The notes under the pieces: model-generated
What the model was told of the DNA's origin: nothing
Databases searched by the model: none
Seen by the model: only the letters and a program-made list of their open reading frames with translations
From: Enterobacteria phage Aplg8
Sequence record: NC_054902.1
Strand: one strand, 5' to 3'
DNA length: 64,000 nucleotides
Made by a program: the position numbers and the translations under genes
In this document: positions 785-62,030 of the stretch, one piece after another
How positions within the stretch are numbered: position 1 is the stretch's first letter
Layout: every line of letters starts with the position of its first letter

Positions 785-815
785 GGGGACCTTTCGGTCC
801 CCCATATTTTTATTT
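785..815 (+). terminator. Rho-independent terminator after gene 54
   Basis: GGGGACC-tttc-GGTCCCC hairpin followed by a T-rich run (catatttttattt). Confidence 0.6.
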
Positions 816-1100
816 ACGGAATGAAATAAAAGCAGCAACTGAAGCAACAGAGGTTTCTTCAATATAAACCTCAATTTTTACCGGAGCTTCTGACTCAAAT
901 TTACCTGTTACTACACCCTGGAAAATGCTTTCAGTCTGTTCTGGCTTTGAAAAATTTTCAGAAGGAAAAATTCCAAACTTTTTATCGGTTCCGAAAATTT
1001 TAATAAATTCATCGTAAACTGCTTCATTAAAAGCATTATCAGCGGGAATAACGCCTTCAACGACGAGTTCTTGACCTAAAAAGCGCAAAGAAGATTTCAT
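810..1100 (-). CDS. Hypothetical protein, 96 aa
   Basis: ORF with GAGG Shine-Dalgarno about 8 nt before the ATG; directly downstream of the copy-A early promoter cassette. Confidence 0.45.
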   Translation of the reverse strand: MKSSLRFLGQELVVEGVIPADNAFNEAVYDEFIKIFGTDKKFGIFPSENFSKPEQTESIFQGVVTGKFESEAPVKIEVYIEETSVASVAAFISFRK

Positions 1101-1108
1101 TTTGTGTT

Positions 1109-1161
1109 CCTCATGTTATGTCAGTAAGACTACTATAACACAACACGAGGGACTTGTAAAC
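1109..1161 (-). promoter_or_regulatory. Early sigma70-type promoter plus leader, copy A of a 53-bp repeat
   Basis: Minus strand reads GTTTAC-N18-TATAGT, then a leader ending in CATGAGG immediately before the ATG at 1100; 52/53 identical to 16389-16441. Confidence 0.5.
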
Positions 1162-3218
1162 TACATTTTGAACTTTTTAGACATTCCGTTGATGTTAACC
1201 AAAGAAGCTAAGATTTGAGAAACTTCGTTTTCCTCTTCTTTTGATTCTTCTACAAGGAATTGATTAAATCCAGCCATTAGACGAACTTCACCAGTTTCCA
1301 TTAGATGGTCGCCATCATATACTGATTCCTCTAATTGTTCAGAAGGAGGAACGATTGTACCTTCGATTAGATACTTGTTATAAGCAGTTTCTTTCATAAA
1401 GTAAGTACTTACTTTATTAATCTTCAGTAAAATTCCACGTGGTAGAATAACTTCAGCTTCTGATGGAAATCCTGATAAATGACCCGGAACGATAACTTTG
1501 ATTCGCTCAGCTCCTTTAATTACCATACCCACGCTAGTTTCAGCATCTTCATTAGCATATGTAGAATGACTACCCATATGCATCAAATCTTCTGCATCAA
1601 CGGAACCTTCTCCTTCACCAGAAAATACTGCTCCGGAATCATCTAAGGCCATATAATTTTTACCATACTCACCAAAGATATTTGGTTTAAGTGATGTCGA
1701 TACGAAGTTCTTGAAATAGAACATTTTATTTTCAATGTTATGACGCAAAGTTTTAAAAGTAACTTCTTGTCCACGGTAAAGTGTAGTTCCTGGAGGAAGA
1801 ACTGAACCTTTAGCGAATGCAGAATCAAGCGTCTCAATATGTTTAATAGCTCGTTCCATATATTCTTCACGGGTAGAATCTGGTTTACCCAAAAGGAACG
1901 AGTTCATTTCAACATATGAATCTGCGCAATAATCTTCAATTACGTCAGATTCAGCCTGAGTTAATCCTTTTGGAGTTACTTCGGTGCTTGCATATTCATA
2001 CGCCTGAGCAGCGGATTCATCAATTAATTTATAAATGCCATTCATGACAAATTGAATAATAGCTGTCTTTTCATCTGGCGTAGCTTTAGAACCTTTAACT
2101 AAATCATTGACAATTTTCTTAATAACATCAAAGCTATTAGAAATATTAATGTCAGCAAGATCGCTTAAAATTTTATCAGTTTTATAATCAAAAAATTCTT
2201 TATTCTTTAAATATTCTTGAGAACTTTGATATGTTATATCGCTCTGCAACTTGATAGATGGATCACGTAAACGTGCATGGGCTAATGCAATATGATTTCG
2301 GAAGCTTTCTAGTTCATAATCGTTAGATTTAAAACGAGAAGCACTTCTCATACCACCGATAGCTCCTTTGCTGAAGTTTGAACCAATCTGAATAACGCCA
2401 GAGTTCATTGGTCCTTCTGCTTTATATACCGGAACTTTAGATTCAAACTCTTGATATTTCTTAGCAGCGAAGCTATCACCCTGAAGTGAAGCATCAACAG
2501 TAGAATATTGAGCTTGTGCTGCTAATCGACGACTAATTTTAGTTTTCTGAATAACAGCTTGATCCGTACGCTTATCATTTTCTAAAGCAATAGAAGCAGC
2601 AACTGCGACAGCTTTAGGAACAGCATTACCTGTTTTAACGTCTACATAAACATCACCAACCTTTGATTCAACTTTTGTGAATAACTCAGTTGAAATAGGA
2701 GGTACACCTGGAATGTCTTCTAAATTGGCATTTTTACGGTAAACCATAATATATGCATATTTCTTATCATAGTCCCAGATTTCCTTTAAAAGAACATATC
2801 GACCTGCTCCTTTAGTACGTACTAAACGGTCAGCAATAACTTGCATTTGACGAGCTGCGCCATTTGTTTTACTCTTTAGTACGCGGAATAAGCATGCATC
2901 AATTTTATACTGTTTCATTGTTTGAAGAGCAGTATCAAAAACAGCATTAATGACGCCAATTGGATTTCCACCTAAGTTTTTAAGTTTAACTAATGATAAT
3001 TTCTCGTTGACACCTATCATTACGATATGCATCATTTTGTCGCCTGGCTTAACGTTTTTATTCGTATCACCGCCAGAGGTGTATGTACAAAATCTAAATC
3101 CAGGAAGCACGCTTTCTTCACCGGCTTGAATAGCAAAAATTTGAGGTATTTTATGCTTAGGATTTAAGTTAACAACCGGCGCCGAAGCGCCGTCAAATAA
3201 TTCTGTAATAAGTTCCAT
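1161..3218 (-). CDS. Alt-family ADP-ribosyltransferase paralog, 685 aa
   Basis: N-terminal ~240 aa (MELITELFD...KISRR) about 65% identical to the adjacent alt product; C-terminal region retains R-S-E type motifs (YRGQEVTF, FVSTSL, EAEVILPRG); central region diverged. Confidence 0.8.
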   Translation of the reverse strand: MELITELFDGASAPVVNLNPKHKIPQIFAIQAGEESVLPGFRFCTYTSGGDTNKNVKPGDKMMHIVMIGVNEKLSLVKLKNLGGNPIGVINAVFDTALQTMKQYKIDACLFRVLKSKTNGAARQMQVIADRLVRTKGAGRYVLLKEIWDYDKKYAYIMVYRKNANLEDIPGVPPISTELFTKVESKVGDVYVDVKTGNAVPKAVAVAASIALENDKRTDQAVIQKTKISRRLAAQAQYSTVDASLQGDSFAAKKYQEFESKVPVYKAEGPMNSGVIQIGSNFSKGAIGGMRSASRFKSNDYELESFRNHIALAHARLRDPSIKLQSDITYQSSQEYLKNKEFFDYKTDKILSDLADINISNSFDVIKKIVNDLVKGSKATPDEKTAIIQFVMNGIYKLIDESAAQAYEYASTEVTPKGLTQAESDVIEDYCADSYVEMNSFLLGKPDSTREEYMERAIKHIETLDSAFAKGSVLPPGTTLYRGQEVTFKTLRHNIENKMFYFKNFVSTSLKPNIFGEYGKNYMALDDSGAVFSGEGEGSVDAEDLMHMGSHSTYANEDAETSVGMVIKGAERIKVIVPGHLSGFPSEAEVILPRGILLKINKVSTYFMKETAYNKYLIEGTIVPPSEQLEESVYDGDHLMETGEVRLMAGFNQFLVEESKEEENEVSQILASLVNINGMSKKFKM

Positions 3219-3221
3219 GAT

Positions 3222-5318
3222 TTATCCTTGAACGAACTTGTAAGGCATGTTTGTAATATCTATGCAAGACGCAATAATTCCAAGAGATGATTCTACTTTC
3301 TGTTTAACATTTGATGAAACAAATGATGCAAAGTCAACTCTGTCTTCTATTTCAATATCACCTGTCATTGCAACTACTTCGCCAGTTTCCATTAAACGGT
3401 CACCGTCATAAATTACCGATTCGGTGAGTTCTTCGGTGGTCATAACTTCAGCTTGAATGAGTTTTGTATTATTAGACGTGGTTCCGTCATTATTAGAAGC
3501 ATCAGTTATTTTATTAACTTTGACCATCAATCCGCGCGGTAGAATAACTTCGGCTTCTGTTGCTATTCCGAGACTTCCTGGATATACAACATTAACTTTA
3601 TGAGCTCCATCAATTGCCCATCCTATTTGAACTTTAACGTATTCAGGATTTTCTTTATACGCTCTTATTTCGTTTGGATTAATAGTTATTCCTTCTTCAT
3701 TTTTATCAACTGTCAATTCATTACGAGCTTCTGGTTCTAAAAGACCAATACCAGCATGTGTAATTCCAAAACGTCCAAAAATGATAGGAGTTAAAGAAGT
3801 AGATACAAAATTTCTGAAATAGAACACTTTATTTTTAACTAGTGCTTCGTATATAGGAGCAGTCATACTTTGAGCACGATAAACTGTGATGCCTTCCGGT
3901 ATGCGGTCACCATTTTCAAAAGCTGAATCTAAGTTATTTATAGCAGATTCAATTTCTTTTTCACTCATTACATCATATCGTTCTGGATTGTAACGACCTA
4001 AAAGAAGATTATTGATGTCAGTATATCCTGAACCGCAATATTCTCTAATGCCACGCTTTTGTGATGGAGTATATTTAGAACCATCGCGGGCAATAGTAAT
4101 ATCAATCATTGGACCAGCACCAATTCCAGAAAAACTGTAAATCATTCGTTTGAGGAATTTAGTTTTTGCTGCGTTCCAGGAATTTTTAGTTATTTCTTCC
4201 CAGACTTCATCTGGTTGTCCTTTACGATTTTTATTATGATTAGCAAGCCATTTATCTTTATAATCTTCAAAGAATTGATTTACAGCTGCTGCGTATTTCT
4301 CTAAACATTTTATTGAAGTAGTTGGTTCATTTTTAATTGCATTAAAAATTACTTCTTTAATTTTTTCTGAAACTTCACCGACTTGACTCATTGGAAAGAA
4401 TTTATAATCATAGTGAAGTTCATCTGCCGTTCCTTTAGCAATAATTTTTGCTGCCTTTGTTTTAGAAGCTAATGAATTAATTCCAATTTTCATTTCTTCT
4501 GCTTCGGGAATTAAAGGTGCAGTAGCTGGTTTATTAAAATTAGCTGCTGTAGATTCATACTTCTGGAATAATTCACTTTCAAATCTAGAAGATTCCAATG
4601 ACTGACTTTGTGCAATTGCTCTACGGGAAATTTTAACTTTAACGATTACGGCTTGGTCAGAACGTTTATCATTTTCTTGTGCAATAGATGCAGCAATTGC
4701 CTCATTTTTGGTTACTTGAGCTCCAGTATCTTTATTGATATAAACATCACCGACTTTCGATTCAACTTTAGTAAAGAGCTCGGTACTAATTTCCGGAACT
4801 CCTGGAATGTCTTCTAGTGATACATTTTTACGATGTATAAGAATATATGCATACTTTTTATCGTAATCCCAGAGTTCCTTAAGAAGGACGTATCTGCCAC
4901 CTGAACGACTGCGGATGAGTCTATCAGCAATAAGTTGAATTTGTCGAGCTTGACCGGCGGTTTTAGACTTAAGAATACGGAGCATACAGGCATCAATTTT
5001 ATACTGACGCATCGTTTGCATCGCAACAGTAAAAACTGAATTGATGTAATTAATTGGGCTTGGACCGAGACCTTTTAATTTAGCAATTGAACCTTTAGCA
5101 GTTAATGTAAAAGGAACAATATGCATCATTTTATCGCCCATCTTTAAATCGCGATTAGTATCACCTCCAGATGTATAGGTACACAAACGAAAGCCTGGTT
5201 GTTCAATTGCGTCATCAACATGAACTGAAAAAATTTGCGGTATTTTCTTCTTTGGATTTAAGTTTGTAATCGGAAGAGTAGTATCTTCGTCAAATAATTC
5301 TGTAATGAGTTCCATCAT
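3222..5318 (-). CDS. alt: Alt ADP-ribosyltransferase, head-packaged; probable start at the second Met
   Basis: 698-aa ORF starting MMELITELFDEDTTLPI; motifs YRAQSMTA, FVSTSL, EAEVILPRG; T4 Alt is 682 aa (recalled); located next to gene 30 as in T4. Confidence 0.85.
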   Translation of the reverse strand: MMELITELFDEDTTLPITNLNPKKKIPQIFSVHVDDAIEQPGFRLCTYTSGGDTNRDLKMGDKMMHIVPFTLTAKGSIAKLKGLGPSPINYINSVFTVAMQTMRQYKIDACMLRILKSKTAGQARQIQLIADRLIRSRSGGRYVLLKELWDYDKKYAYILIHRKNVSLEDIPGVPEISTELFTKVESKVGDVYINKDTGAQVTKNEAIAASIAQENDKRSDQAVIVKVKISRRAIAQSQSLESSRFESELFQKYESTAANFNKPATAPLIPEAEEMKIGINSLASKTKAAKIIAKGTADELHYDYKFFPMSQVGEVSEKIKEVIFNAIKNEPTTSIKCLEKYAAAVNQFFEDYKDKWLANHNKNRKGQPDEVWEEITKNSWNAAKTKFLKRMIYSFSGIGAGPMIDITIARDGSKYTPSQKRGIREYCGSGYTDINNLLLGRYNPERYDVMSEKEIESAINNLDSAFENGDRIPEGITVYRAQSMTAPIYEALVKNKVFYFRNFVSTSLTPIIFGRFGITHAGIGLLEPEARNELTVDKNEEGITINPNEIRAYKENPEYVKVQIGWAIDGAHKVNVVYPGSLGIATEAEVILPRGLMVKVNKITDASNNDGTTSNNTKLIQAEVMTTEELTESVIYDGDRLMETGEVVAMTGDIEIEDRVDFASFVSSNVKQKVESSLGIIASCIDITNMPYKFVQG

Positions 5319-5338: not shown

Positions 5339-5346
5339 TATTTATA
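5339..5346 (-). promoter_or_regulatory. T4-type late promoter (TATAAATA) upstream of alt
   Basis: Exact TATAAATA on the minus strand about 20 nt upstream of the alt ATG; preceded by a GGCC-cgaa-GGCC hairpin. Confidence 0.5.
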
Positions 5347-5367
5347 AAATTAAAGGCCCGAAGGCCT

Positions 5368-5556
5368 TTAATAATCTATTGGTAAGAGAGTACGATATAT
5401 TTCAAACTTTGGACCTTTTTCATAGGCATCAAATGTTTCTGTGAATTTATTATAAGCATATGCATCTATAAATTCAATCATAATTTGTGATACAGAAGTA
5501 GAAACATCTCCACCTTCTTTTTGAGCCACGACAATTGTTTCTAAGTAAGCTTTCAT
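5368..5556 (-). CDS. Hypothetical protein, 62 aa
   Basis: ORF whose start overlaps the gene 30 stop (ATGA-type overlap). Confidence 0.4.
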   Translation of the reverse strand: MKAYLETIVVAQKEGGDVSTSVSQIMIEFIDAYAYNKFTETFDAYEKGPKFEIYRTLLPIDY

Positions 5557-9253: not shown

Positions 9254-9294
9254 AGTATTTTCCTCAGTAAGGGGCCGAAGCCCCTCATTTTATT

Positions 9295-9660
9295 TTAAAT
9301 ATCAAATTCGTTAAGAACTACATCAAAGATTGCTTCAAGATGCTCAGGTTTAGCTCTGTTACTCAGAATATGACGAATCCAAGTTTTAACCAGAAGCTTG
9401 CGATTAACGCCATTCCAGCAAGGATGAGTCCCTAAATCGCGTTGACGAAAATCATCATCCAAAGCGATTTTGAAGTTGGAACCTTCCATTGTGATTGAAA
9501 CCGTGATGCCATTTTCAAATCGCATATAAACGTAGTTAGGAGTCATATACTGTTCAATTTCGCATACTGATCCATTTTGATGTTTCCAAAGGCAAATAGT
9601 ATCAATAGAACCTGCAATACCATTAGAAACATATTTACGTTCAAAGTTGATGTAGTTCAT
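9295..9660 (-). CDS. Hypothetical protein, 121 aa
   Basis: ORF directly downstream of an early promoter; Shine-Dalgarno GGAGAA. Confidence 0.45.
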   Translation of the reverse strand: MNYINFERKYVSNGIAGSIDTICLWKHQNGSVCEIEQYMTPNYVYMRFENGITVSITMEGSNFKIALDDDFRQRDLGTHPCWNGVNRKLLVKTWIRHILSNRAKPEHLEAIFDVVLNEFDI

Positions 9661-9697
9661 TTTTATTCTCCGAGATGTTTAATTGCGGTACAGGTAT

Positions 9698-9726
9698 ATA
9701 ATATCATATCCTGTACCAAAGTAAAC
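9698..9726 (-). promoter_or_regulatory. Early promoter (GTTTAC-N17-TATTAT)
   Basis: Minus strand GTTTAC then 17 nt then TATTAT; 8-bp inverted repeat GGTACAGG/CCTGTACC brackets the -10. Confidence 0.5.
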
Positions 9727-9728
9727 AA

Positions 9729-10061
9729 TTATTTTACTACTTTCCAGTGCTGCATGTCAAGTTTACCAACTTTTTTCATCTTCTCAATTAAGCGTTCGGC
9801 ACGTTGGCGAGCTGTAACATAATACCATTCACCTAATTCATTTTGTTCAATTTTTCCAACGATTACTGTATTCAATTCATAAATCCAACCAGTAAAGAAA
9901 TTATGAACTTGAATTGTAAAGGTGAAATCTGTTCCCATACCTTCTGTTGTTTCTACTTCAATAATATTACCTTCAACTGCCATTAAGAACCACATAGTTT
10001 CATCATATTTACCATTGAAGCATTTAGTTTTAACTGCAGCGTTCAGATTAATCGTTTTCAT
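9729..10061 (-). CDS. Hypothetical protein, 110 aa
   Basis: ORF with AAGGAG Shine-Dalgarno downstream of an early promoter. Confidence 0.45.
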   Translation of the reverse strand: MKTINLNAAVKTKCFNGKYDETMWFLMAVEGNIIEVETTEGMGTDFTFTIQVHNFFTGWIYELNTVIVGKIEQNELGEWYYVTARQRAERLIEKMKKVGKLDMQHWKVVK

Positions 10062-10088
10062 TTTATTCTCCTTTGTTTGTGTAAGATA

Positions 10089-10118
10089 ATACTATCACAA
10101 AGGAACCATACTGTAAAC
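10089..10118 (-). promoter_or_regulatory. Early promoter (GTTTAC-N18-TAGTAT)
   Basis: Consensus -35 GTTTAC and TGn-extended -10 on the minus strand. Confidence 0.5.
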
Positions 10119-12842: not shown

Positions 12843-13075
12843 AGTACGCCATACACCCTTTGTGCTTCAACTAATCCATCAAAATCCAATTTGAGATGTG
12901 TTATTTGGTCACCATCACCTGGATTCACAATTACTAATACTGAACGAGGAGTTTCGGTAATAACACGAACCGATGTTTCAGGAAATCGTTCAGAAACCTT
13001 ATTTACCAATTCCTGTGCAAATAGCTTAACTTTTTCTTGGAATTCTTTAACAGTAATTGGTTTTTCACTTAGCAT
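12839..13075 (-). CDS. Hypothetical protein, 78 aa
   Basis: ORF downstream of an early promoter. Confidence 0.45.
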   Translation of the reverse strand: MLSEKPITVKEFQEKVKLFAQELVNKVSERFPETSVRVITETPRSVLVIVNPGDGDQITHLKLDFDGLVEAQRVYGVL

Positions 13076-13105
13076 TTTGTTTTCCTCATTTGTTTTGGTA
13101 GAGCT

Positions 13106-13135
13106 ATAATATCACAACTCTACCGTAAAGTAAAC
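13106..13135 (-). promoter_or_regulatory. Early promoter (GTTTAC-N18-TATTAT)
   Basis: Consensus elements on the minus strand; 7-bp inverted repeat GGTAGAG/CTCTACC brackets the -10. Confidence 0.5.
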
Positions 13136-15536: not shown

Positions 15537-15886
15537 TTAGAAAGGTCCTGGATGTCTTCTGCGAACTTGTTGAAGGAGTTGTTGATTTGTTTTTCAACCA
15601 ATCCTGGCTTATGAGCCACCACATCCGCCTTCTTTGCGTCTTTGCGCAGTTTTTCATTTTCACGCTCAATAGCAGCAATTGCCTCACGATTTTTATTATT
15701 CATCGCATCAATATAATTATACTGAATTCGCAAATTATTTAATGCTAAGGCGTTTTCATTGGCCGTTTTTGTAATTTCTACAACAGACGTTTCTAATCTT
15801 TCAATTTTATTTTTTAAAATTAAAGAAGTTCCGCCTAATGCAATTACAATTAATAGCAAACCTGCTGTCGTATTACTTAATTGCAT
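15533..15886 (-). CDS. Inner-membrane spanin (Rz-like), 117 aa
   Basis: N-terminal transmembrane segment TAGLLLIVIALGGTSLIL followed by a coiled-coil-like charged region. Confidence 0.6.
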   Translation of the reverse strand: MQLSNTTAGLLLIVIALGGTSLILKNKIERLETSVVEITKTANENALALNNLRIQYNYIDAMNNKNREAIAAIERENEKLRKDAKKADVVAHKPGLVEKQINNSFNKFAEDIQDLSK

Positions 15887-16383
15887 AAAGTTTTAATAAC
15901 CTCTATAATATCGTCTTGAGAAAGACCGTTAATTAAAATATGATGTTCAGCTGGAGATTTAGAAATTTTAAAGCATGCCTCAACATCTTCTGCCATATCC
16001 GATGCACTACGATTTGGATTACTAATACCAAGGCGGTGTTTTCCCGTCAAAGGATTAACGATGATATAGCATTTGCAGCTATTGATATGAACATTGGGTT
16101 GAGTCTGATTAATGAACACTTCACAATCATACTTAGCGAGTTGATTTTCTAAAAAGACTTTCATCTCTTCAACCGCATCAGGAAGCATATCACGGGCTTG
16201 CTCAAGACGACGATTTCGATATTCTTTAATGGTCGTTTTCCGCTTGACTTGCTTAGCTAAATCTTTCTTAAGATCGGTGATATATCCAACTCGACGATTT
16301 CCTTTGAATACAGAAATCCCATCTGTAGTATCACCGTATGCTTCAACGACCATTTCAGTAGTAATAAGTTGTAAATCCATCAT
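15877..16383 (-). CDS. alc: Alc-like host transcription termination protein
   Basis: 167/168 aa as T4 Alc; position between the pseT cluster and rnlA. Confidence 0.6.
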   Translation of the reverse strand: MMDLQLITTEMVVEAYGDTTDGISVFKGNRRVGYITDLKKDLAKQVKRKTTIKEYRNRRLEQARDMLPDAVEEMKVFLENQLAKYDCEVFINQTQPNVHINSCKCYIIVNPLTGKHRLGISNPNRSASDMAEDVEACFKISKSPAEHHILINGLSQDDIIEVIKTLCN

Positions 16384-16388
16384 AAAGT

Positions 16389-16441
16389 CCTCATGTTATG
16401 TCAGTAAGACTACTGTAACACAACACGAGGGACTTGTAAAC
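16389..16441 (-). promoter_or_regulatory. Early promoter plus leader, copy B of the 53-bp repeat
   Basis: GTTTAC-N18-TACAGT then leader ending CATGAGG before the alc ATG; 52/53 identical to 1109-1161. Confidence 0.5.
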
Positions 16442-16444
16442 AGC

Positions 16445-18056
<1,612 letters not shown>

Positions 18057-25251: not shown

Positions 25252-25494
25252 TCAAATAGACTTTTTCACAATTTTCCAATCAGCTTTAAACTGATCAACG
25301 TCAGAGTGATAAATCCAAAATCCTGCGCTTTCACCGTCTTCATAAAGCGGACACCCATCGCATTCATCTTCCCATCCCATATCACGCAAAAGATGTTCAG
25401 CTTTTTCAATGAGTTCAGAATCTTTACCGATGATATTAAAATACCATTTACCTCTAACTTCTGAATCTTTGATGCTCTGACGTTGTAATCTCAT
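25252..25494 (-). CDS. Hypothetical protein, 80 aa
   Basis: Track ORF trimmed to Met20 (MRLQRQ), which has an AAGGAG Shine-Dalgarno and lies downstream of an early promoter. Confidence 0.45.
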   Translation of the reverse strand: MRLQRQSIKDSEVRGKWYFNIIGKDSELIEKAEHLLRDMGWEDECDGCPLYEDGESAGFWIYHSDVDQFKADWKIVKKSI

Positions 25495-25519
25495 TTTATT
25501 CTCCTTAGTTGATAAGGCT

Positions 25520-25549
25520 ATAGTATCACTACCATAGCCTGTTGTAAAC
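25520..25549 (-). promoter_or_regulatory. Early promoter (GTTTAC-N18-TACTAT)
   Basis: Consensus elements; 7-bp inverted repeat AGGCTAT/ATAGCCT brackets the -10. Confidence 0.5.
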
Positions 25550-26468: not shown

Positions 26469-26510
26469 ATTATTTTCCTCTTTAATCATCAGCAGTATTG
26501 CCGATAGTTG

Positions 26511-26540
26511 TATAGTACCATGGAAGGACAAGGATGTAAA
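26511..26540 (-). promoter_or_regulatory. Early promoter (GTTTAC-N18-TACTAT) with A-rich upstream element
   Basis: Consensus elements; upstream A-tract gtgaaaaaaatttgaaataaaaaa. Confidence 0.5.
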
Positions 26541-26560
26541 CCGTTTTGTGAAAAAAATTT

Positions 26561-29887: not shown

Positions 29888-32800
29888 ATGGCCGAGATTA
29901 AAAGAAAGTTCAGAGCAGAAGACGGTCTGGACGCAGGTGGCGATAAAATAATCAACGTAGCTTTAGCTGATCGTGCCGTAGGAACTGACGGTGTTAACGT
30001 TGATTACCTAATTCAAGAAAACACAGTTCAACAATACGATCCAACTCGTGGATATTTAAAAGATTTTGTAATCATTTATGATAACCGCTTTTGGGCTGCT
30101 ATAAATGATATTCCAAAACCGGCAGGAGCTTTTAATAGCGGACGCTGGAGAGCATTACGTACCGATGCTAACTGGATTACAGTCTCATCTGGTTCATATC
30201 AATTAAAATCTGGTGAAGCTATTTCGGTTAACACTGCAGCTGGTAATGATATTACATTTACTTTACCATCTTCTCCAATTGACGGTGATACTATCGTTCT
30301 CCAAGATATTGGAGGAAAACCTGGAGTTAACCAAGTTTTAATTGTAGCTCCAGTGCAAAGTATTGTAAACTTCAGAGGTCAACAAGTACGTTCAGTACTA
30401 ATGACTCATCCAAAATCGCAGATAGTTTTAATTTTTAGTAATCGTCTGTGGCAAATGTATGTTGCCGATTATAGTAGAGAAGCTGTCGTTGTAACACCAG
30501 CAAGTCTCTATCAGGCGCAATCTAATGATTTTATCGTACGTAGATTTACTTCTGCTGCACCAATTAATGTTAAACTTCCAAGATTTGCTAATCATGGCGA
30601 TATTATTAATTTCGTTGATTTAGATAAACTGAATCCACTTTATCATACAATTGTTACTACATACGATGAAACGACTTCAGTACAAGAAGTTGGAACTCAT
30701 TCCATTGAAGGCCGTACATCAATTGACGGTTTCTTGATGTTTGATGATAATGAGAAATTATGGAGATTGTTTGACGGGGACAGTAAAGCACGTTTACGTA
30801 TCATAACGACTAATTCAAATATTCGTCCAAACGAAGAAGTTATGGTATTTGGTGCAAATAACGGAACAACTCAAACGATTGAGCTTCAGCTTCCAACTAA
30901 TATTTCTGTTGGTGATACTGTTAAAATTTCCATGAATTACATGAGAAAAGGACAAACAGTTAAAATCAAAGCTGCCGGTGAAGATAAAATTGCTTCTTCA
31001 GTTCAATTGCTGCAATTCCCAAAACGTTCAGAATATCCGCCTGAAGCTGAATGGGTGACTGTTCAAGAATTAGTTTTTAACGGTGAAACTAATTATGTTC
31101 CAGTTTTACAGCTTGCTTATATCGAAGATTCCGATGGAAAATATTGGGTTGTACAGCAAAACGTTCCAACTGTAGAAAGAGTAGACTCTTTAAATAATTC
31201 TACTAGAGCAAGATTAGGCGTAATTGCTTTAGCTACACAAGCTCAAGCTAATGTCGATTTAGAAAATTCTCCACAAAAAGAATTAGCAATTACTCCAGAA
31301 ACGTTAGCTAATCGTACTGCTACTGAAACTCGCAGAGGTATTGCAAGAATAGCAACTACTGCTCAAGTGAATCAGAACACCACATTCTCTTTTGCTGATG
31401 ATATTATCATCACTCCTAAAAAGCTGAATGAAAGAACTGCTACAGAAACTCGCAGAGGTGTCGCAGAAATTGCTACACAACAGGAAACTAATACAGGTAC
31501 TGATGATACTACAATCATCACTCCTAAAAAGCTTCAAGCTCGTCAAGGTTCTGAATCATTATCTGGTATTGTAACTTTTGTATCTACTGCAGGAGCTACT
31601 CCAGCTTCTAGTCGTGAATTAAATGGTACGAATGTTTATAATAAAAACACTAATAATTTAGTTGTTTCACCTAAAGCTTTGGATCAGTATAAAGCTACTC
31701 CAACACAGCAAGGTGCAGTAATTTTAGCAGTTGAAAGTGAAGTAATTGCTGGACAAAGCCAAGAAGGATGGGCAAATGCGGTTGTAACGCCAGAAACGTT
31801 ACATAAAAAGACATCAACTGATGCAAGAATTGGTTTAATTGAAATTGCTACGCAAAGTGAAGTTAATACAGGAACTGATTATACTCGTGCAGTCACTCCT
31901 AAAACTTTAAATGACCGTAGAGCAACTGAAAGTTTAAGTGGTATAGCTGAAATTGCTACACAAGTTGAATTCGACGTAGGCGTCGACGATACTCGTATCT
32001 CTACACCATTAAAAATTAAAACTAGATTTAATAGTACTGATCGTACTTCTGTTGTTGCTCTATCTGGATTAGTTGAATCAGGAACTCTCTGGGACCATTA
32101 TACCCTTAATATTCTTGAAGCAAATGAGACACAGCGTGGTACACTTCGTGTAGCTACACAAGTTGAAGCTGCTGCAGGAACATTGGATAATGTTTTGATA
32201 ACTCCTAAAAAGCTTTTAGGTACTAAATCTACCGAAGCACAAGAAGGTGTTATTAAAGTTGCAACCCAGTCTGAAACCGTAGCTGGAACATCAGCAAATA
32301 CTGCTGTATCTCCAAAAAATTTAAAATGGATTGTGCAGAGTGAACCTACTTGGGCAGCTACTACTGCAATAAGAGGTTTTGTTAAAACTTCATCTGGTTC
32401 AATTACATTCGTTGGTAATGATACAGTCGGTTCTACCCAAGATTTAGAACTGTATGAGAAAAATAGCTATGCAGTATCACCATATGAATTAAACCGTGTA
32501 TTAGCAAATTATTTACCGTTAAAAGCAAAAGCTGCTGATACAAATTTATTGGATGGTCTAGATTCATCTCAGTTCATTCGTAGGGATATTGCACAGACGG
32601 TTAATGGTTCACTAACCTTAACCCAACAAACGAATCTGAGTGCCCCTCTTGTATCATCTAGTACTGCTGCGTTTGGTGGTTCAGTTTCGGCAAATAGTAC
32701 ATTAACTATTTCTAATACTGGAACGGCAACTCGTCTGATTTTTGAGAAAGGACCTCAAACTGGAACTAACCCAGCACAGACGATGACTATCAGAGTATGG

Positions 32801-38600: not shown

Positions 38601-38854
38601 CTTTAGCAACTAAGGTCGGTAAAACATCAAATGACGGTGCCCACACCCATAGTTGGTCAGGAACTACTAGCTCTACGGGTAACCATGCTCATACGGTAGG
38701 TATTGGTGCTCATACCCATTCGGTAGGTATTGGTGCTCATTCTCATACTGTTGCAATTGGTTCCCATGGACATACAATAACTGTAAATGCCACAGGAAAT
38801 ACAGAAAACACAGTTAAAAACGTTGCTTTTAACTATATCGTTCGTTTAGCATAA
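35618..38854 (+). CDS. 37: Long tail fibre distal subunit (receptor-binding)
   Basis: 1078 aa (T4 gp37 1026 aa); C-terminal His-x-His repeats GAHTHS/GAHSHT/GSHGHT typical of the gp37 tip. Confidence 0.95.
38345..38434 (+). repeat. In-frame tandem coding repeat in gene 37 ([10 protein letters not shown] x2 plus a partial third)
   Basis: Two 30-nt units encode identical peptides ([10 protein letters not shown] / [10 protein letters not shown]) with synonymous differences at several codons. Confidence 0.7.
38695..38775 (+). repeat. Triple 27-nt His-box repeat in gene 37 (VGIGAHTHS / VGIGAHSHT / VAIGSHGHT)
   Basis: First two units share an identical 18-nt core gtaggtattggtgctcat. Confidence 0.7.
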
Positions 38855-42875: not shown

Positions 42876-42916
42876 TTTCTAATCTCCGTAATTCTGTATC
42901 AGTAGTTGATAGTTGT

Positions 42917-42946
42917 ATAGTACCACAGTATGCTTTGGTTGTAAAC
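42917..42946 (-). promoter_or_regulatory. Early promoter for motA (GTTTAC-N18-TACTAT)
   Basis: Consensus elements; leader ACAACTATCAACTACTGATACAG. Confidence 0.55.
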
Positions 42947-42971
42947 CGTTTTGTGAAAAAAATTTTTGAAA

Positions 42972-46094: not shown

Positions 46095-46194
46095 AGTAAA
46101 CGTTTAATACATCAATCATTAAAACGATTGGGAATATACTCAAAACTACTAGTATTATAACTACATTCCATATAGCTTTAACAATCTTTTTCAT
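46081..46194 (-). CDS. Small membrane peptide, 37 aa
   Basis: Track ORF 46081-46329 trimmed to MKKIVKAIWNVVIILVVLSIFPIVLMIDV... with GGAGG Shine-Dalgarno; the upstream part of the track ORF is promoter sequence. Confidence 0.4.
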   Translation of the reverse strand: MKKIVKAIWNVVIILVVLSIFPIVLMIDVLNVYFGFM

Positions 46195-46222
46195 TTTCTG
46201 TTCCTCCGTAGTTGATAGGGTA

Positions 46223-46252
46223 ATAGTACCACGGAAGAACAGTCTTGTAAAC
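46223..46252 (-). promoter_or_regulatory. Early promoter (GTTTAC-N18-TACTAT)
   Basis: Consensus elements; leader TACCCTATCAACTACGGAGG. Confidence 0.5.
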
Positions 46253-46262
46253 AACTTTTTTA

Positions 46263-46358
46263 AAAATATTCGTAATAAATGTGAATACCAACTACTACCG
46301 CTGAAACCTGTGCAACCCACCACGCACAAGCAATAAGTACAGAATTCAAAATTTTCAT
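46263..46358 (-). CDS. Possible small membrane peptide, 31 aa
   Basis: MKILNSVLIACAWWVAQVSAVVVGIHIYYEYF with GAGG Shine-Dalgarno. Confidence 0.3.
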
Positions 46359-46701: not shown

Positions 46702-46735
46702 TTTATTCTCCAAATCCGTATCAGTTGATAGTTGT

Positions 46736-46765
46736 ATAGTACCACGGTCCTTGTGGTACGTAAAC
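46736..46765 (-). promoter_or_regulatory. Early promoter (GTTTAC-N18-TACTAT)
   Basis: Consensus elements; leader ACAACTATCAACTGATACGG. Confidence 0.5.
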
Positions 46766-46781
46766 TGTTTTGTGAAATTTT

Positions 46782-47339
46782 TTAAATGGAAAGATACCAT
46801 CCGTTGTAGTTGCTTTTTCTTACAACCCTACGAAGGTCTTCTCTGTCACCGATGAACTTCGGAGTGTACTGGATGACACCTGGATGAATTTCTTTAGTGT
46901 TGAATATAATTATACAGTCAGCGACTTGATGATTTAGAATGGGCCCTAGATTTATTCCAGAACCATATGGATACTCTCCGCTGCATCCTGTTGTTACCGA
47001 AATCCAACGTGAGTCAGTTTGATGTGTCTTAACTTCTACGCGAAGCCCGCAATATTTTGGATGCGCCAATACATCCCATGCATATGTGTACGGATCATCG
47101 ACATCTTCTTGGCCTTTATTGACATATCCGCTTAGCCAATCTGCCACAAAAAACTCTGCGTACACAGCGATACGGCATCTTTCGATAACTTCTGCCTTAT
47201 CCTGGTTCGGGTTTTGTTTTAAAGAGTATCTTACAGTATCAGCAATTTTGACCTTCATTTCATTGGTTAAATCGCTGTTCGATAGAGTAAATGTCGGAAT
47301 CTGAAATAGTCTCTGTAACCCAGGATTCGTTTTCTGCAT
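46782..47339 (-). CDS. denB: Endonuclease IV
   Basis: 185 aa as T4 DenB; position between ndd cluster and rIIB. Confidence 0.8.
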   Translation of the reverse strand: MQKTNPGLQRLFQIPTFTLSNSDLTNEMKVKIADTVRYSLKQNPNQDKAEVIERCRIAVYAEFFVADWLSGYVNKGQEDVDDPYTYAWDVLAHPKYCGLRVEVKTHQTDSRWISVTTGCSGEYPYGSGINLGPILNHQVADCIIIFNTKEIHPGVIQYTPKFIGDREDLRRVVRKSNYNGWYLSI

Positions 47340-47395
47340 TTAAACTTTCCTTTATGTCGGAATCACTGATATTCATATAAATCATAATTTCTCTT

Positions 47396-47418
47396 AAAAC
47401 AAAAGGGCCGAAGCCCCT
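47396..47418 (-). terminator. Terminator-like hairpin
   Basis: GGGCCGAAGCCCC hairpin followed on the minus strand by TTTTGTTTT. Confidence 0.45.
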
Positions 47419-47422
47419 TATT

Positions 47423-47617
47423 TTATTTGAATTGTGCAATTCTTTTCTCTAGACACTCAGCATAAGATTTCATTGAGATGAACTGTGAAAGCAGCAGTTC
47501 TTGCTCAACTGCACTAACCGTTAGAAACTTTGTGCTTTCTAAAAATTTGCTCAGTGCATTAATTTTGAGCATTAATTGATCGTATTCTTCTTTTACTCGT
47601 GCTTGATAACCTAACAT
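47423..47617 (-). CDS. Hypothetical protein, 64 aa
   Basis: ORF between rIIB and denB, preceded by a hairpin and Shine-Dalgarno. Confidence 0.45.
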   Translation of the reverse strand: MLGYQARVKEEYDQLMLKINALSKFLESTKFLTVSAVEQELLLSQFISMKSYAECLEKRIAQFK

Positions 47618-47645
47618 AATTTTCCTTAGTTAAGGGCCGAAGCCC

Positions 47646-48584
47646 TTATTTAAATTGTTCAGTAACGTCTTCAACTACTTCGTATTGGCAGGTACGCATT
47701 TTAGCATCGTTGTAATCAATCGGAATTGATACTACATCACGTGGATGTACTTTAACTTTTACAACTCGGCTAGTTGAACTGCCAAAGTGACGAATATAAG
47801 ATTTAGAACACACATGCAGACCACGAGAACAAGTTTGTGTATCATCGTCATTCACACGAGTACGCGGCATTTTAACTACTTTACCAGGACTGTTATCAAA
47901 GGTGTTTGAGTGACAGTCAAAGTAGTTGTCACGAACTACTTTCCAAGCATAGAAGTAACCATCTTCTGTAATTTCAATATCGTTTGCTACCAAGAAATCA
48001 AAGAGTCGAGATACCGCTTTCTGGCTTGGGTTTTCCAGCAGATTTTCCAAGAACGGAAAATAAAATTCAAAGTTTTCACCTTTTTCCATCGAATCGAGAA
48101 TACGATCAACTAAACCAGACCGTAATTCGATATTTTGATAGAACAAGCTTCCGCCTTCAATTCGAACATCGCCGGAAATATATTTTTCAACAGCGCGACG
48201 AACATTAATTTTTTGTGCCGCTTCTTCCAGCTTATCCGCTACAAGCAGATTAAGAATTTCCTGGAAGTTTGAATGAGTATTAGGAGTTGCGTTATAAGTT
48301 ACACCGTCAACAGTAATTGAAATGAATTTTTTAGATGCATTCCAAATAATGTCAGATTTAGCAACTGGAGCAATAACTTCATCGCTATTAACTTTAACTG
48401 TAATATCACCGCTAATAGTAACTTTAGGGTGTTTAGCTTCTTCAGCATTTTTCAAAACACGACGGATTGTGTCAACCGATACATCCTTCCAATAAGCTAA
48501 TTCCTGCTGAGTGTAATTACCGCTTGAATACAGTTTAACAATTTCAGCTTGTTCGTTTTTGGTCAGGCATTTAATATTGTACAT
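47646..48584 (-). CDS. rIIB: rIIB protein
   Basis: 312 aa as T4 rIIB; adjacent to rIIA. Confidence 0.9.
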   Translation of the reverse strand: MYNIKCLTKNEQAEIVKLYSSGNYTQQELAYWKDVSVDTIRRVLKNAEEAKHPKVTISGDITVKVNSDEVIAPVAKSDIIWNASKKFISITVDGVTYNATPNTHSNFQEILNLLVADKLEEAAQKINVRRAVEKYISGDVRIEGGSLFYQNIELRSGLVDRILDSMEKGENFEFYFPFLENLLENPSQKAVSRLFDFLVANDIEITEDGYFYAWKVVRDNYFDCHSNTFDNSPGKVVKMPRTRVNDDDTQTCSRGLHVCSKSYIRHFGSSTSRVVKVKVHPRDVVSIPIDYNDAKMRTCQYEVVEDVTEQFK

Positions 48585-52862: not shown

Positions 52863-52928
52863 TTATCCTCGTTTGGTTTCGGGAATATTATACTCCGGTA
52901 ATCATAAAGCTAAAGGCCCGAAGGCCTT

Positions 52929-53198
52929 TTATTTAAAACGAATAGTTGAATCCTTAAAGAACAGCCCAGAACATACTGTTCCTTCTACTTTCTGCCCAGT
53001 AGGTCCAATAGCACGAAATCCAGTATGTTGGAAATCATTTTCAGAACAACCAAACCAATTATATCCAGTGATTTCAATATTAGTAAAACCACTTGAAGAT
53101 AAAACTTTGGTTGCATTATCAGCATCAGTACATCCTGCTAAAGACACTGCTAATACTAATGCCGCGATAGAACGATTAATATATTTCATAATTTTCAC
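52929..53198 (-). CDS. Predicted lipoprotein, 89 aa
   Basis: Signal peptide with lipobox SLAGC (MKIMKYINRSIAALVLAVSLAGCTD). Confidence 0.5.
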   Translation of the reverse strand: MKIMKYINRSIAALVLAVSLAGCTDADNATKVLSSSGFTNIEITGYNWFGCSENDFQHTGFRAIGPTGQKVEGTVCSGLFFKDSTIRFK

Positions 53199-54683: not shown

Positions 54684-54695
54684 GTTGTTTTCTGT

Positions 54696-54738
54696 ATCAG
54701 TAGTTGATATTGATATAGTACCATAATCAACTACTGAT
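54696..54738 (-). promoter_or_regulatory. Promoter-like element with 13-bp perfect inverted repeat around the -10
   Basis: ATCAGTAGTTGAT (54696-54708) and ATCAACTACTGAT (54726-54738) flank TACTAT; -35 is non-consensus. Confidence 0.4.
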
Positions 54739-54778
54739 GTATATAGTTTTATGAAAAAATTTTAAACTTTATGCAAAT

Positions 54779-56260: not shown

Positions 56261-56803
56261 TTAATCTAAGGTAATAAAGCCTTTTAATTCGGCATGTGAC
56301 TTGCGGAACATTACTTGATGACCGCCAATGATAACTTGGTCATCAGGTACTTCGTATACAGCGAGATAAAATCCTTTAGAAGCTAATTCTTCACGCTCTT
56401 CTCGTGTGAACCATCTCATCATATCATATTCGCTAGCGAAAGCAAAATGATAAAGAGCTATAAACCATCCTGGAATATAGTGATCTACGCCTACATATTC
56501 TTCTTTCTCAAAATTAGTATTAATTGCTATATTAGCATTTTTAACTAATAATTTGTCTTCATGCGGCACAGGAATTCTTTTATTATCATTACTATGATGC
56601 ATAAAATTAGGTCTGTCATAACCTACGTGTAATAACCACTCTTCACTCCATGAATCTATTATACTCCTGTACGGAGTTATTTGAACACAAAGATCTCGAC
56701 GTATTGTTATAGCATCTTCATAATTAAGAATACTAAATGATGATTCAACACGATAAATTTTCATTTTATTATCCTCAGTAGCTATGGTGTTATAATACCA
56801 CAA
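56261..56803 (-). CDS. Hypothetical protein; probable start at MKIYRV (about 56764), 167 aa
   Basis: Internal Met has a GAGGATAA Shine-Dalgarno; the track start lies inside the upstream promoter. Confidence 0.45.
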   Translation of the reverse strand: MWYYNTIATEDNKMKIYRVESSFSILNYEDAITIRRDLCVQITPYRSIIDSWSEEWLLHVGYDRPNFMHHSNDNKRIPVPHEDKLLVKNANIAINTNFEKEEYVGVDHYIPGWFIALYHFAFASEYDMMRWFTREEREELASKGFYLAVYEVPDDQVIIGGHQVMFRKSHAELKGFITLD

Positions 56804-56821
56804 CTAACCGAGGAAGTAAAC
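56792..56821 (-). promoter_or_regulatory. Early promoter (GTTTAC-N18-TATTAT)
   Basis: Consensus elements on the minus strand. Confidence 0.5.
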
Positions 56822-61354: not shown

Positions 61355-61974
61355 TCAACTACCTCAATATCATAAACTTTAAATGTTCCAAATGAATCGT
61401 GTAATTTTTCTTTTGAAATAGAAGTTATTTTATACTTTCCAATTGGAATCATCCATTCTTGTTCATGTGCAATCATCATTAAGTTATCAGTACGTTCTGA
61501 ATCTAATCCATCAGTATCTTCATATGTATACTTAAACTCAGTATTAGGAGAAGAAAGTATAATATCGCTGATATGGTCAGAGTAATTAAAAGCTTTATCC
61601 GTTTTTAAGCGAAGTACTATTTCAGTGAAATATTCAGCATAAGAAAAAGAACACGCTGTATGCAAACTAGTAGTAAATGAATCTACTCTGTTCGTTGAAA
61701 ACACTTCTCCAACTTGTAAATCTTTAATGAGTTCTTTTGTCGATTTTGATATACCACGATATAGCTGATACGGCGATTTAGTTAAATGCTTTTTAACGAT
61801 TTTATTCAACTGTTGGTGAAGAGCTTCATTCTTTTTGGCTTCCATACATTGCCAAAGAACTGACTGTTCAAAGTCAGTAAATTTTTCACAGACCTTTTTA
61901 TACATATCATATTGAAAATCAACACTTTCAGCTTTTATAGATAGCTGTTCAACATCTGCAAGATTAATAATCAT
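61351..61974 (-). CDS. modB: ADP-ribosyltransferase ModB
   Basis: 207 aa as T4 ModB; LYRGISKS and EQEWMIPIG motifs; overlaps modA by 4 nt. Confidence 0.8.
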   Translation of the reverse strand: MIINLADVEQLSIKAESVDFQYDMYKKVCEKFTDFEQSVLWQCMEAKKNEALHQQLNKIVKKHLTKSPYQLYRGISKSTKELIKDLQVGEVFSTNRVDSFTTSLHTACSFSYAEYFTEIVLRLKTDKAFNYSDHISDIILSSPNTEFKYTYEDTDGLDSERTDNLMMIAHEQEWMIPIGKYKITSISKEKLHDSFGTFKVYDIEVVE

Positions 61975-62000
61975 GATAGCCTCCGTATACTTCAGAAGCT

Positions 62001-62030
62001 ATCATATCATTGTTAGGAAGGAAAGTAAAC
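62001..62030 (-). promoter_or_regulatory. Early promoter for the modB-modA operon (GTTTAC-N18-TATGAT)
   Basis: Consensus elements on the minus strand. Confidence 0.5.

Follow-up and report, generated by a model that had tools for sequence, protein, structure and literature searches.

Organization of the 53-nt cassettes

The minus strand of a 64,000-nt stretch of Enterobacteria phage Aplg8 (NC_054902.1; referred to as a whole as the window) carries two copies of a 53-nt cassette. Copy A (1109-1161) separates an intact alt paralog from alt.-3, and copy B (16389-16441) separates rnlA, the gene of RNA ligase 1, from alc, which encodes the host-transcription inhibitor (Table 1). The window represents the genus Tequatrovirus (T4-like phages) and is 98% identical to phages of the wV7/RB51/RB32 type. 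The 53-mer GTTTACAAGTCCCTCGTGTTGTGTTA[T/C]AGTAGTCTTACTGACATAACATGAGG had exactly these two matches in the window, both on the minus strand, and none in 100 shuffles, i.e., no occurrence is expected by chance. An independent repeat search recovered the same pair (family D16) with 98% identity and a spacing of 15,280 nt. The two copies are identical at 52 of the 53 positions; for the 15 other early-promoter-like cassettes of the window the mean was 24.6 ± 5.0 of 53 and the maximum 39. The two differ solely at cassette position 27, base three of the -10 hexamer: copy A has T there and copy B has C. The 60-nt flanks match only at 22/60 and 20/60 positions, the background level, so the boundaries of the copies are sharp.

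Two distant, near-identical copies with one mismatch and differing flanks had been reported in the original prediction, made from the sequence alone, and both statements were confirmed by the searches above. Each copy had also been said to start at the stop codon of the upstream gene and to end at the Shine-Dalgarno (SD) sequence of the downstream one. The end is correct for both: the copies finish in GAGG, 8 nt 5' of the alt.-3 ATG in copy A and, in copy B, 5 nt 5' of the first and 8 nt 5' of the second alc ATG. The start is exact for copy A, whose first base is the last base of the TAG codon of the alt paralog, and had to be corrected for copy B, which begins 3 nt past the TAA of rnlA. A larger duplication including the 5' coding ends was suggested by the 10-mer GTCGTTGAAG (E-[LM]-V-V-E) shared by the coding starts of alt.-3 and alc (~1057-1066 and 16342-16351, minus strand). 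It was rejected, as the motifs are 6 nt out of register, and the 10-mer was judged a chance match; BLASTP detected no similarity between the Alt.-3 and Alc proteins.

Positions 2-7 of the cassette are TTTACA, within the T4 early motif GTTTACA, and are followed by a 17-nt spacer, a TG-n element and the -10 hexamer at positions 25-30, TATAGT in copy A and TACAGT in copy B. The promoter of copy A matches at 10 of the 12 hexamer positions and has the TG. The early-promoter hexamers claimed in the original prediction are thus present in both copies, and the annotation of phage fPS-90 labels the site 'predicted early promoter'.

Table 1. Features of the window associated with the two cassettes and with cassettes of similar design
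Feature	Position	Strand	Basis or remark
Copy A of the cassette (53 nt), alt-paralog stop codon (last base) to SD of alt.-3	1109..1161	-	sequence, repeat search
Copy A -35 hexamer TTTACA	1155..1160	-	promoter motif scan
Copy A extended -10 TGtTATAGT	1132..1140	-	sequence, promoter motif scan
Copy A predicted +1, A at cassette position 37, 7 nt past the -10 hexamer	1125	-	inferred from hexamers
Copy A 5' arm CCUCGUGUUGUGUU, promoter spacer and first base of the -10 hexamer	1137..1150	-	RNA folding
Copy A 3' arm GACAUAACAUGAGG, SD GAGG at 1109-1112	1109..1122	-	RNA folding
Copy B of the 53-nt cassette, 3 nt past the rnlA stop codon to SD of alc	16389..16441	-	sequence, repeat search
Copy B -35 hexamer TTTACA	16435..16440	-	promoter motif scan
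Copy B extended -10 TGtTACAGT, site of the only A/B difference	16412..16420	-	sequence, promoter motif scan
Copy B predicted +1	16405	-	inferred from hexamers
Copy B 5' arm, the 14 nt of copy A plus AAGUC(C) pairing the copy B flank GGACUU	16417..16435	-	RNA folding
Copy B 3' arm, SD GAGG at 16389-16392, 4-nt extension ACUU	16385..16402	-	RNA folding
alt.-3, 96 amino acids (aa), DUF5498 / phrog_1739	810..1100	-	SD-to-AUG 8 nt
alc, host-transcription inhibitor	15877..16383	-	second ATG (16380) is the T4 annotation, SD-to-AUG 8 nt
rnlA (RNA ligase 1) open reading frame as listed mechanically	16445..17605	-	putative source of read-through RNA into copy B
Tandem alt genes (alt paralog 1161-3218, alt 3222-5318), 3 nt apart	1161..5318	-	likely late read-through source for copy A
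T4 late-promoter motif TATAAATA, ~20 nt 5' of the alt ATG, just past the GGCCUUCGGGCC terminator hairpin	5339..5346	-	motif scan
First terminator-like hairpin downstream of the alt late promoter, past alt.-3	785..802	-	terminator scan
Cassette of a 167-aa gene, phrog_1106	56762-56821	-	hairpin -23.7 kcal/mol, z = -5.6; SD sequestered
Cassette of a 37-aa hydrophobic peptide	46192-46252	-	hairpin -22.7 kcal/mol, z = -5.4; SD sequestered
Cassette of a 207-aa ModA/ModB-like ADP-ribosyltransferase	61972-62030	-	hairpin -18.0 kcal/mol, z = -4.5; SD and AUG sequestered; 5' arm is the -10 hexamer and following bases
Cassette of a 110-aa gene	10059-10118	-	hairpin -12.1 kcal/mol, z = -2.1; SD sequestered
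Strong hairpins around the -10, short of the SD	25492-25549, 13073-13135, 9658-9726	-	z = -4.0 to -4.9; PeSL 'overlapping -10' class

The promoter lies inside a hairpin predicted to bury the SD

The inverted repeat of the cassette forms a 14-bp main stem, in which positions 12-25 pair with 40-53 (three G.U pairs included), and a 4-bp inner stem (positions 28-31 with 36-39) brings the total to 18 bp. Copy B gains a further 6 bp by pairing AAGUCC with GGACUU from its own flank. In this layout the promoter spacer makes up the 5' arm, the -10 hexamer and the predicted +1 lie at the tip, and the leader with the SD makes up the 3' arm; in copy A the predicted +1 falls within the inner stem, downstream of the entire 5' arm. 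Because the 5' arm precedes the predicted +1, the hairpin could form solely in RNA arriving from the upstream gene. The SD-sequestering inverted repeat of the original prediction is real and does cover the SD, with a stem of 14 bp rather than the 7 nt given there. It had been assigned to the full leader of the cassette; the 5' arm lies upstream of the predicted +1 and hence outside the promoter's own leader.

The predicted folding energy of the read-through RNA was -23.0 (copy A; z = -4.0) and -28.6 kcal/mol (copy B; z = -5.8), compared with 0 and -1.8 kcal/mol, respectively, for the own 31-nt leader starting at position 37. By calculation, the SD-2..AUG+6 region takes 14.5-16.1 kcal/mol to open in the read-through RNA (upstream context of 60, 150 or 300 nt), whereas 1.4-3.1 kcal/mol suffice in the own transcript, with the +1 at position 32 or 37. 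In the read-through RNA the predicted probability of an unpaired SD was 0.00. This probability was dropped as a measure in favor of the opening energies, since it gave a misleading 0.03 for the own transcript of copy A, an otherwise unstructured RNA dominated by weak pairing with the coding region.

The duplication is old and the pairing is maintained within Tequatrovirus

A 71-nt query around copy A retrieved 803 places in 492 phage records, typically two per genome, and a 221-nt query around copy B matched 496 records. Both copies are present in ~490 Tequatrovirus records, including T2 and T4 (NC_000866, 123041-123093 and 136284-136336). This search of other T-even phages, proposed as a check in the original prediction, showed a genus-wide occurrence that rules out an assembly artefact, and a chance origin of the repeat is very unlikely. 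A metagenome scan returned 12 stretches, ten of them Tequatrovirus copies and two unrelated chance matches (L106 and L107). Copy A of T4 has the substitution G40A, and copy B of T4 has T at position 27 (TATAGT), so the T/C at this position is a polymorphism and not locus-specific.

Among 29 copies from 14-15 genomes or contigs, each differed from the consensus at 0-5 positions. The variants were mostly private to one copy of a genome, as seen in T2, SA20RB, T4 and three IMG/VR genomes; one change in T2, G32A, was common to both copies. Since ~490 records carry both copies and the variants are mostly copy-private, the duplication is old and genus-wide and predates the radiation of the genus. 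The near-identity of the copies might still stem from recent transfer or ongoing gene conversion rather than from selection on an old duplicate. According to published work, patches of ~50 bp are sufficient for recombination in T4, a fresh 30-nt exchange between the alc and alt.-3 loci occurred in one Dhakavirus (see below), and T2 shares G32A between its copies. The wide occurrence of both copies and the private variants speak against this explanation, as does the divergence between paralogs (0-5 of 53), which is similar to that between orthologs, and we give it little chance. Of the two causes named in the original prediction, recent transfer is thus not supported and strong selection is a fair description.

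All eight transitions found in the main stem within Tequatrovirus (C13U, C15U twice, G16A twice, G40A, C42U and A46G) keep the pairing, with an expectation of 0.61 for each; the one transversion, C12A, breaks the terminal pair. The new pairs comprise four G.U and no A.C, an indication that selection acts on the sense RNA and not on the DNA or an antisense RNA. The cassette is kept nearly unchanged because nearly every base is doubly constrained, by the promoter, both arms and the SD.

The same design recurs with different stems at the rnlA-alc junction

The rnlA-alc junction sequences were gathered from GenBank phages and IMG/VR, and 16 lineage representatives were compared. The layout recurred with different sequences: GTTTACA is followed by a spacer that contains the 5' arm, the loop holds the -10 hexamer, and the SD belongs to the 3' arm. 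Different, co-varying stems were found in about 11 lineages other than Tequatrovirus, examples being Gelderlandvirus, Karamvirus, Moonvirus, Jiaodavirus, Roskildevirus, Dhakavirus, Winklervirus, Bragavirus and phage EcS1 (Table 2). The two Bragavirus sequences differ from each other by two double compensatory changes (CAU/AUG vs. CGU/ACG).

Table 2. Arms of the hairpin at the rnlA-alc junction outside Tequatrovirus
Lineage	5' arm	3' arm
Karamvirus, Moonvirus	UCUCCAUUUGGUUGUGU	ACAC(U/C)AACCAAAUGGAGA
Gelderlandvirus	UCUCCGUUUAGUU	AACCAAACGGAGA
Jiaodavirus	UCCUCAUCAG	CUGAUGAGGA
Winklervirus	UCCUCAUUUCGUUGUG	CACACUAACGAAAUGAGGA
Phage EcS1	UCCUCAUUUUGUUG	CAACAAAAUGAGGA
Roskildevirus	UCUCCUCAG	CUGAGGAGA
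Dhakavirus	UCUCCUCAU(G)	(C)AUGAGGAGA
Bragavirus (phiP4-3)	ACCUCUCAUUUUUA	UGAAAAUGAGAGGUU
Bragavirus (L061)	CCCUCUCGUUUUUG	CAAAAACGAGAGG
L069/L070	CCUCGUUUGUU	AACAAACGAGG

A register-free permutation test, in which the duplex energy of every spacer with every leader was calculated, gave a mean of -16.0 kcal/mol for spacers with their own leaders vs. -9.2 ± 0.78 kcal/mol after permutation, and none of the 10,000 permutations was as low. The own leader was the best partner in 12 of the 16 alc lineages. The SD is contained in the 3' arm in 11 of the 16, and across the lineages the form of the anti-SD (CUCC or CCUC) follows that of the SD (GGAG or GAGG). The permutation test was used in place of a covariance model (R1) built on eight in-register sequences, which was discarded since it aligned Tequatrovirus by sequence and not by structure and gave antisense matches too; the misalignment arose because the Tequatrovirus 5' arm sits 3 nt further from the -35 hexamer. 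Likewise, pair counts were not taken from a MAFFT alignment of these cassettes, in which the arms of different genera are out of register.

In Gualtarvirus the pairing is shifted, so that the SD and AUG face the -10 hexamer and the bases next to it, and in Gaprivervirus an extra open reading frame separates rnlA from alc. The alc leader of Mosigvirus, CAACACGAGG (L021 and L062), is a perfect Watson-Crick complement of the Tequatrovirus 5' arm CCTCGTGTTG, an arm that Mosigvirus itself lacks, having a small spacer palindrome only. To judge from these sequences, the Mosigvirus leader may be left over from a hairpin that was lost, and it gives a hint that C-to-U changes in the 3' arm produced the three G.U pairs of Tequatrovirus.

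Origin of the alt.-3 copy

An early promoter precedes alt.-3 in seven other genera (Dhakavirus, Gaprivervirus, Mosigvirus, Marfavirus-like phages, Kanagawavirus, Karamvirus and Gelderlandvirus), in whose genomes no more than 12 nt are common to the alt.-3 and alc cassettes. The native flanks at alt.-3, AAAAUGUAGUUUACAA and GAGGAACA, are similar to their counterparts in other genera. The limitation of the hairpin at alt.-3 to Tequatrovirus implies an old cassette exchange, in which a Tequatrovirus ancestor would have swapped the alt.-3 segment between the shared motifs GUUUACAA and CAUGAGGA for an alc-type cassette, parsimony suggesting this direction.

One Dhakavirus (IMG/VR 2706795356) showed a comparable event. 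From just past the -10 hexamer through the ATG, its alc leader is identical over 30 nt to its own alt.-3 leader (the shared 3' half is ACCTTACACAAACATGAGGAGAACATTATG; contig UViG_2706795356, L063 547-606 and L083 ~340-403); five other Dhakaviruses have a different alc leader. The hybrid leader still forms a hairpin. We read this case as an independent partial exchange between the alc and alt.-3 loci.

Predicted transcription into the cassettes from upstream

A T4 late-promoter motif precedes alt, the two alt genes are 3 nt apart, the terminator scan detected no terminator-like site between alt and alt.-3, and the first such hairpin lies past alt.-3 (Table 1). Late alt transcripts should hence run through copy A. 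At the other locus rnlA abuts the copy B cassette, and the scan found no terminator-like site between 15700 and 19500. In published T4 omics data both RNA and protein are early for alt.-3 and for alc, both are late for alt, and rnlA has early RNA and late protein. These classes fit an active early promoter in each cassette; the gate proposed below is outside their reach.

The stop codon abuts the cassette in every lineage examined, which would suit translational coupling: on terminating at the end of the upstream gene, a ribosome would unwind the lowest part of the stem and free the SD, so that the output of alc and alt.-3 would follow upstream translation. A terminating ribosome covers roughly 9-10 nt past the stop codon. 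In Winklervirus, Dhakavirus and Jiaodavirus the anti-SD begins 7 nt past the stop codon, within its reach, whereas the main stem of Tequatrovirus begins 11 nt (copy A) or 14 nt (copy B) past it and would lie beyond the cover. Moreover, the Alc and Alt.-3 proteins of T4 are early and those of their upstream neighbors late, which argues against coupling, and we regard it as highly improbable.

The tandem alt genes of the window are both full-length (685 and 698 aa) and show 70-76% DNA identity in a 2094-2103-nt register. In T4 the second alt gene has decayed into the fragments alt.-1 and alt.-2, and the copy A cassette is nonetheless intact. The terminator hairpin at 5347-5372 (minus strand) is directly followed by the alt late promoter, forming a compact terminator-promoter junction. 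It belongs to a family of near-identical terminator hairpins with loops of the UUCG type (GGCCUUCGGGCC or GGGGCUUCGGCCCC), whose other members lie at 9257-9294, 47390-47427, 47619-47656 and 52899-52932.

Relationship with PeSL cassettes and transcription terminators

PeSL (promoter-early stem-loop) cassettes of T4-type phages, by their published definition (Arbiol et al. 2010, PMC2839356; Comeau et al. 2014, PMC4122927), extend from the stop codon of one gene to the SD and ATG of the next and include an AT-rich tract, the -35/-10 elements and a stem-loop. According to the same papers the stem-loop may lie between the hexamers or overlap the -10 (one of five described positions), G-T pairs occur in it, and exchange takes place through the cassettes, the crossovers having been mapped to the stretch from the -10 to the SD. 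Each copy of the 53-nt cassette conforms to this definition. Both occupy the intergenic position between stop codon and SD, and both have an early promoter, the -10 matching the PST/T4 consensus TTTACW-N17-TAYWAT at 5/6 positions in copy A and 4/6 in copy B. A stable stem-loop spans the -10 hexamer. The 40 nt upstream are A/T-rich in both copies but are coding and outside the repeat, and may or may not count as the AT-rich tract. The repeated copies resemble exchange points as well, the Tequatrovirus and Dhakavirus junctions agreeing with crossovers between -10 and SD. The promoter and terminator activities of the copies themselves are putative.

The copies also differ from the published cassettes. 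The published stems were called terminators or attenuators, whereas in Tequatrovirus the 3' arm is the SD itself, a U tract is missing and the arms co-vary with the SD; the words translation and ribosome binding have no occurrence in the text of the PeSL articles. In addition, the copies lie 15 kb apart beside essential genes and hence make no mini-circle pair.

The published reading leads to an alternative in which the hairpin acts on transcription or RNA stability, as an attenuator, a terminator or a 3'-end stabilizer of the upstream mRNA, and the overlap with the SD is incidental. One RB49 PeSL stem-loop cut lacZ expression in a transcriptional fusion as strongly as rrnB T1 (PeSL papers). 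The record of phage SA20RB (OL960581.1; L037 352-401) labels the copy A hairpin a 'rho-independent terminator' (WebGeSTer), despite the missing U tract and the enclosed -10 and SD; the label is probably a recurrent error among T4-like genomes. Hairpins that span the -10 and stop short of the SD are also present in two alc lineages and in three further cassettes of the window (Table 1). A stable hairpin right after the stop codon is indeed what an intrinsic terminator looks like, but no U run follows the stem in either copy (the tails are AACACAAAAUG and ACUUUAUGAUG), the hairpin encloses the -10 element and the SD, and the terminator scan made no call at either cassette, so an intrinsic terminator was rejected. 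The inclusion of the SD in the 3' arm of most alc lineages and the anti-SD that tracks its variants are also at odds with an incidental overlap, and the stem is rich in A-U and G.U pairs, unlike the polyG/polyC stems of the RB49 PeSLs. On balance, we find a primary action on transcription or RNA stability unlikely. Rfam covariance models run over the window gave no match at the gathering score; a chance miRNA match (E = 0.72) occurred at copy B.

A proposed translational gate around an early promoter

Close parallels to the arrangement are found among T4 genes. The translation-initiation regions of e, soc, 49 and I-TevI, and also of mobE and segB, carry inhibitory hairpins (Uzan and Miller 2010, PMC3014915). 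In e, soc, 49 and I-TevI a late promoter lies within the DNA of the 5' strand, and late transcripts escape the hairpin (McPheeters et al. 1986, reviewed in PMC3014915). Three features of these genes recur at alc and alt.-3: the SD and/or AUG is predicted to be sequestered in long transcripts, the promoter lies, by sequence, inside the 5'-strand DNA, so that the own transcript, from the predicted +1, would lack the 5' strand, and the structure is conserved among related phages. The difference is in the internal promoter, which is the late TATAAATA there and an early sigma-70 promoter in copies A and B; an early internal promoter would make the translation window immediate-early instead of late. 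Neither alc nor alt.-3 is among the genes listed in PMC3014915. The principle is already known in T4; new are the use of an early promoter, the co-variation over about a dozen genera and the apparent generality.

With moderate confidence we favor the reading that each copy is a PeSL-type early cassette whose hairpin confines the translation of alc and alt.-3 essentially to transcripts from their own promoter. The promoter and the RNA structure of the cassettes are well supported; we infer the translational gate, the exact start site, the read-through in vivo and the direction of the exchange. In the proposed mechanism the promoter spacer would double as the antisense partner of the leader and SD. 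Read-through RNA, coming from the late alt and alt-paralog genes into copy A and from rnlA into copy B, would carry both arms and fold into a 14- to 20-bp hairpin burying the SD. RNA from the own promoter would start at the hairpin tip without the 5' arm and leave the ribosome site open. The alc and alt.-3 genes would in this way be insulated from upstream transcription and translated from their own immediate-early transcripts, by the same logic as in T4 e, soc, 49 and I-TevI, with an early instead of a late promoter inside the hairpin. The design would be ancestral at the rnlA-alc junction, and the alt.-3 copy would descend from an ectopic exchange, in a Tequatrovirus ancestor, of the segment between the shared motifs GTTTACAA and CATGAGGA.

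Several observations weigh against such a gate. At alc, no hairpin of this kind was seen in Mosigvirus, L075, Ac42 and phiAS4, and in PEi20 and L058/L074 it stops 1-5 nt short of the SD, so SD occlusion at this junction is frequent and not universal. At alt.-3, none of the seven other genera with an early promoter has an SD-sequestering arm, only a small spacer palindrome (e.g., ACACCACAUGGAUGUGGU), and the copy A hairpin may simply have come along with the exchange instead of being selected at alt.-3. The terminator behavior of the RB49 stem-loop would, by analogy, support a different primary role. The start sites of both cassettes are predictions from hexamer spacing only, and the folding energies describe equilibrium, ignoring kinetics and ribosomal helicase action. 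Finally, the full-text-searchable literature contains neither a description of a hairpin at alc or alt.-3 nor an experimental test of one, and an earlier description elsewhere is possible.

Other cassettes of the window and significance

At least four further cassettes of the window, with unrelated sequences, are also predicted to sequester the SD (Table 1), the probability of its being unpaired amounting to ~0 in the read-through RNA and 0.6-0.8 in the own transcript. For the cassette at 56821 the design is kept in Dhakavirus with a different stem. Among the window cassettes without both copies of the 53-mer, spacers complement their own leaders with a mean of -10.7 kcal/mol vs. -8.4 ± 0.68 kcal/mol after permutation, 19 of 20,000 permutations being as low. 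It is possible, though we put it forward tentatively, that an early promoter inside an SD-sequestering hairpin is a general, conserved design of T-even early genes that keeps them silent on read-through RNA.

Other repeats were noted in the window. A 74-nt early-promoter family (minus strand GTTTAC...GTGGTACTATACAACTATCAAC) has five copies that are 64-77% identical (26487-26560, 42892-42965, 46198-46271, 46711-46784 and 54690-54763), and the similarity extends past the hexamers into the first 15 transcribed bases. On the plus strand, 38684-38764 and 31290-32269 contain in-frame tandem or dispersed repeats inside large genes, i.e., three 27-nt units (H-x-H-x-V-G-I-G-A) and a 71-nt motif present five times, which are presumably tail-fibre repeat motifs.

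For annotation, hairpins of this type should not be labeled rho-independent terminators. If the gate holds, it would explain why some T4 early cassettes are conserved far beyond the needs of a promoter, and it would show how cassettes can be exchanged between loci as complete modules in which promoter, gate and ribosome site travel together. A general design, if true, would give the T4 early programme a further level of temporal control, one undescribed in the searchable literature, and such cassettes would double as portable units that recombine between loci with the gate intact, as in the Dhakavirus hybrid. For host takeover it matters how much Alc, which stops host transcription, is made and when; if the gate operates as proposed, Alc synthesis would be limited to the first minutes of infection by RNA folding alone, with the promoter spacer acting as the anti-SD.

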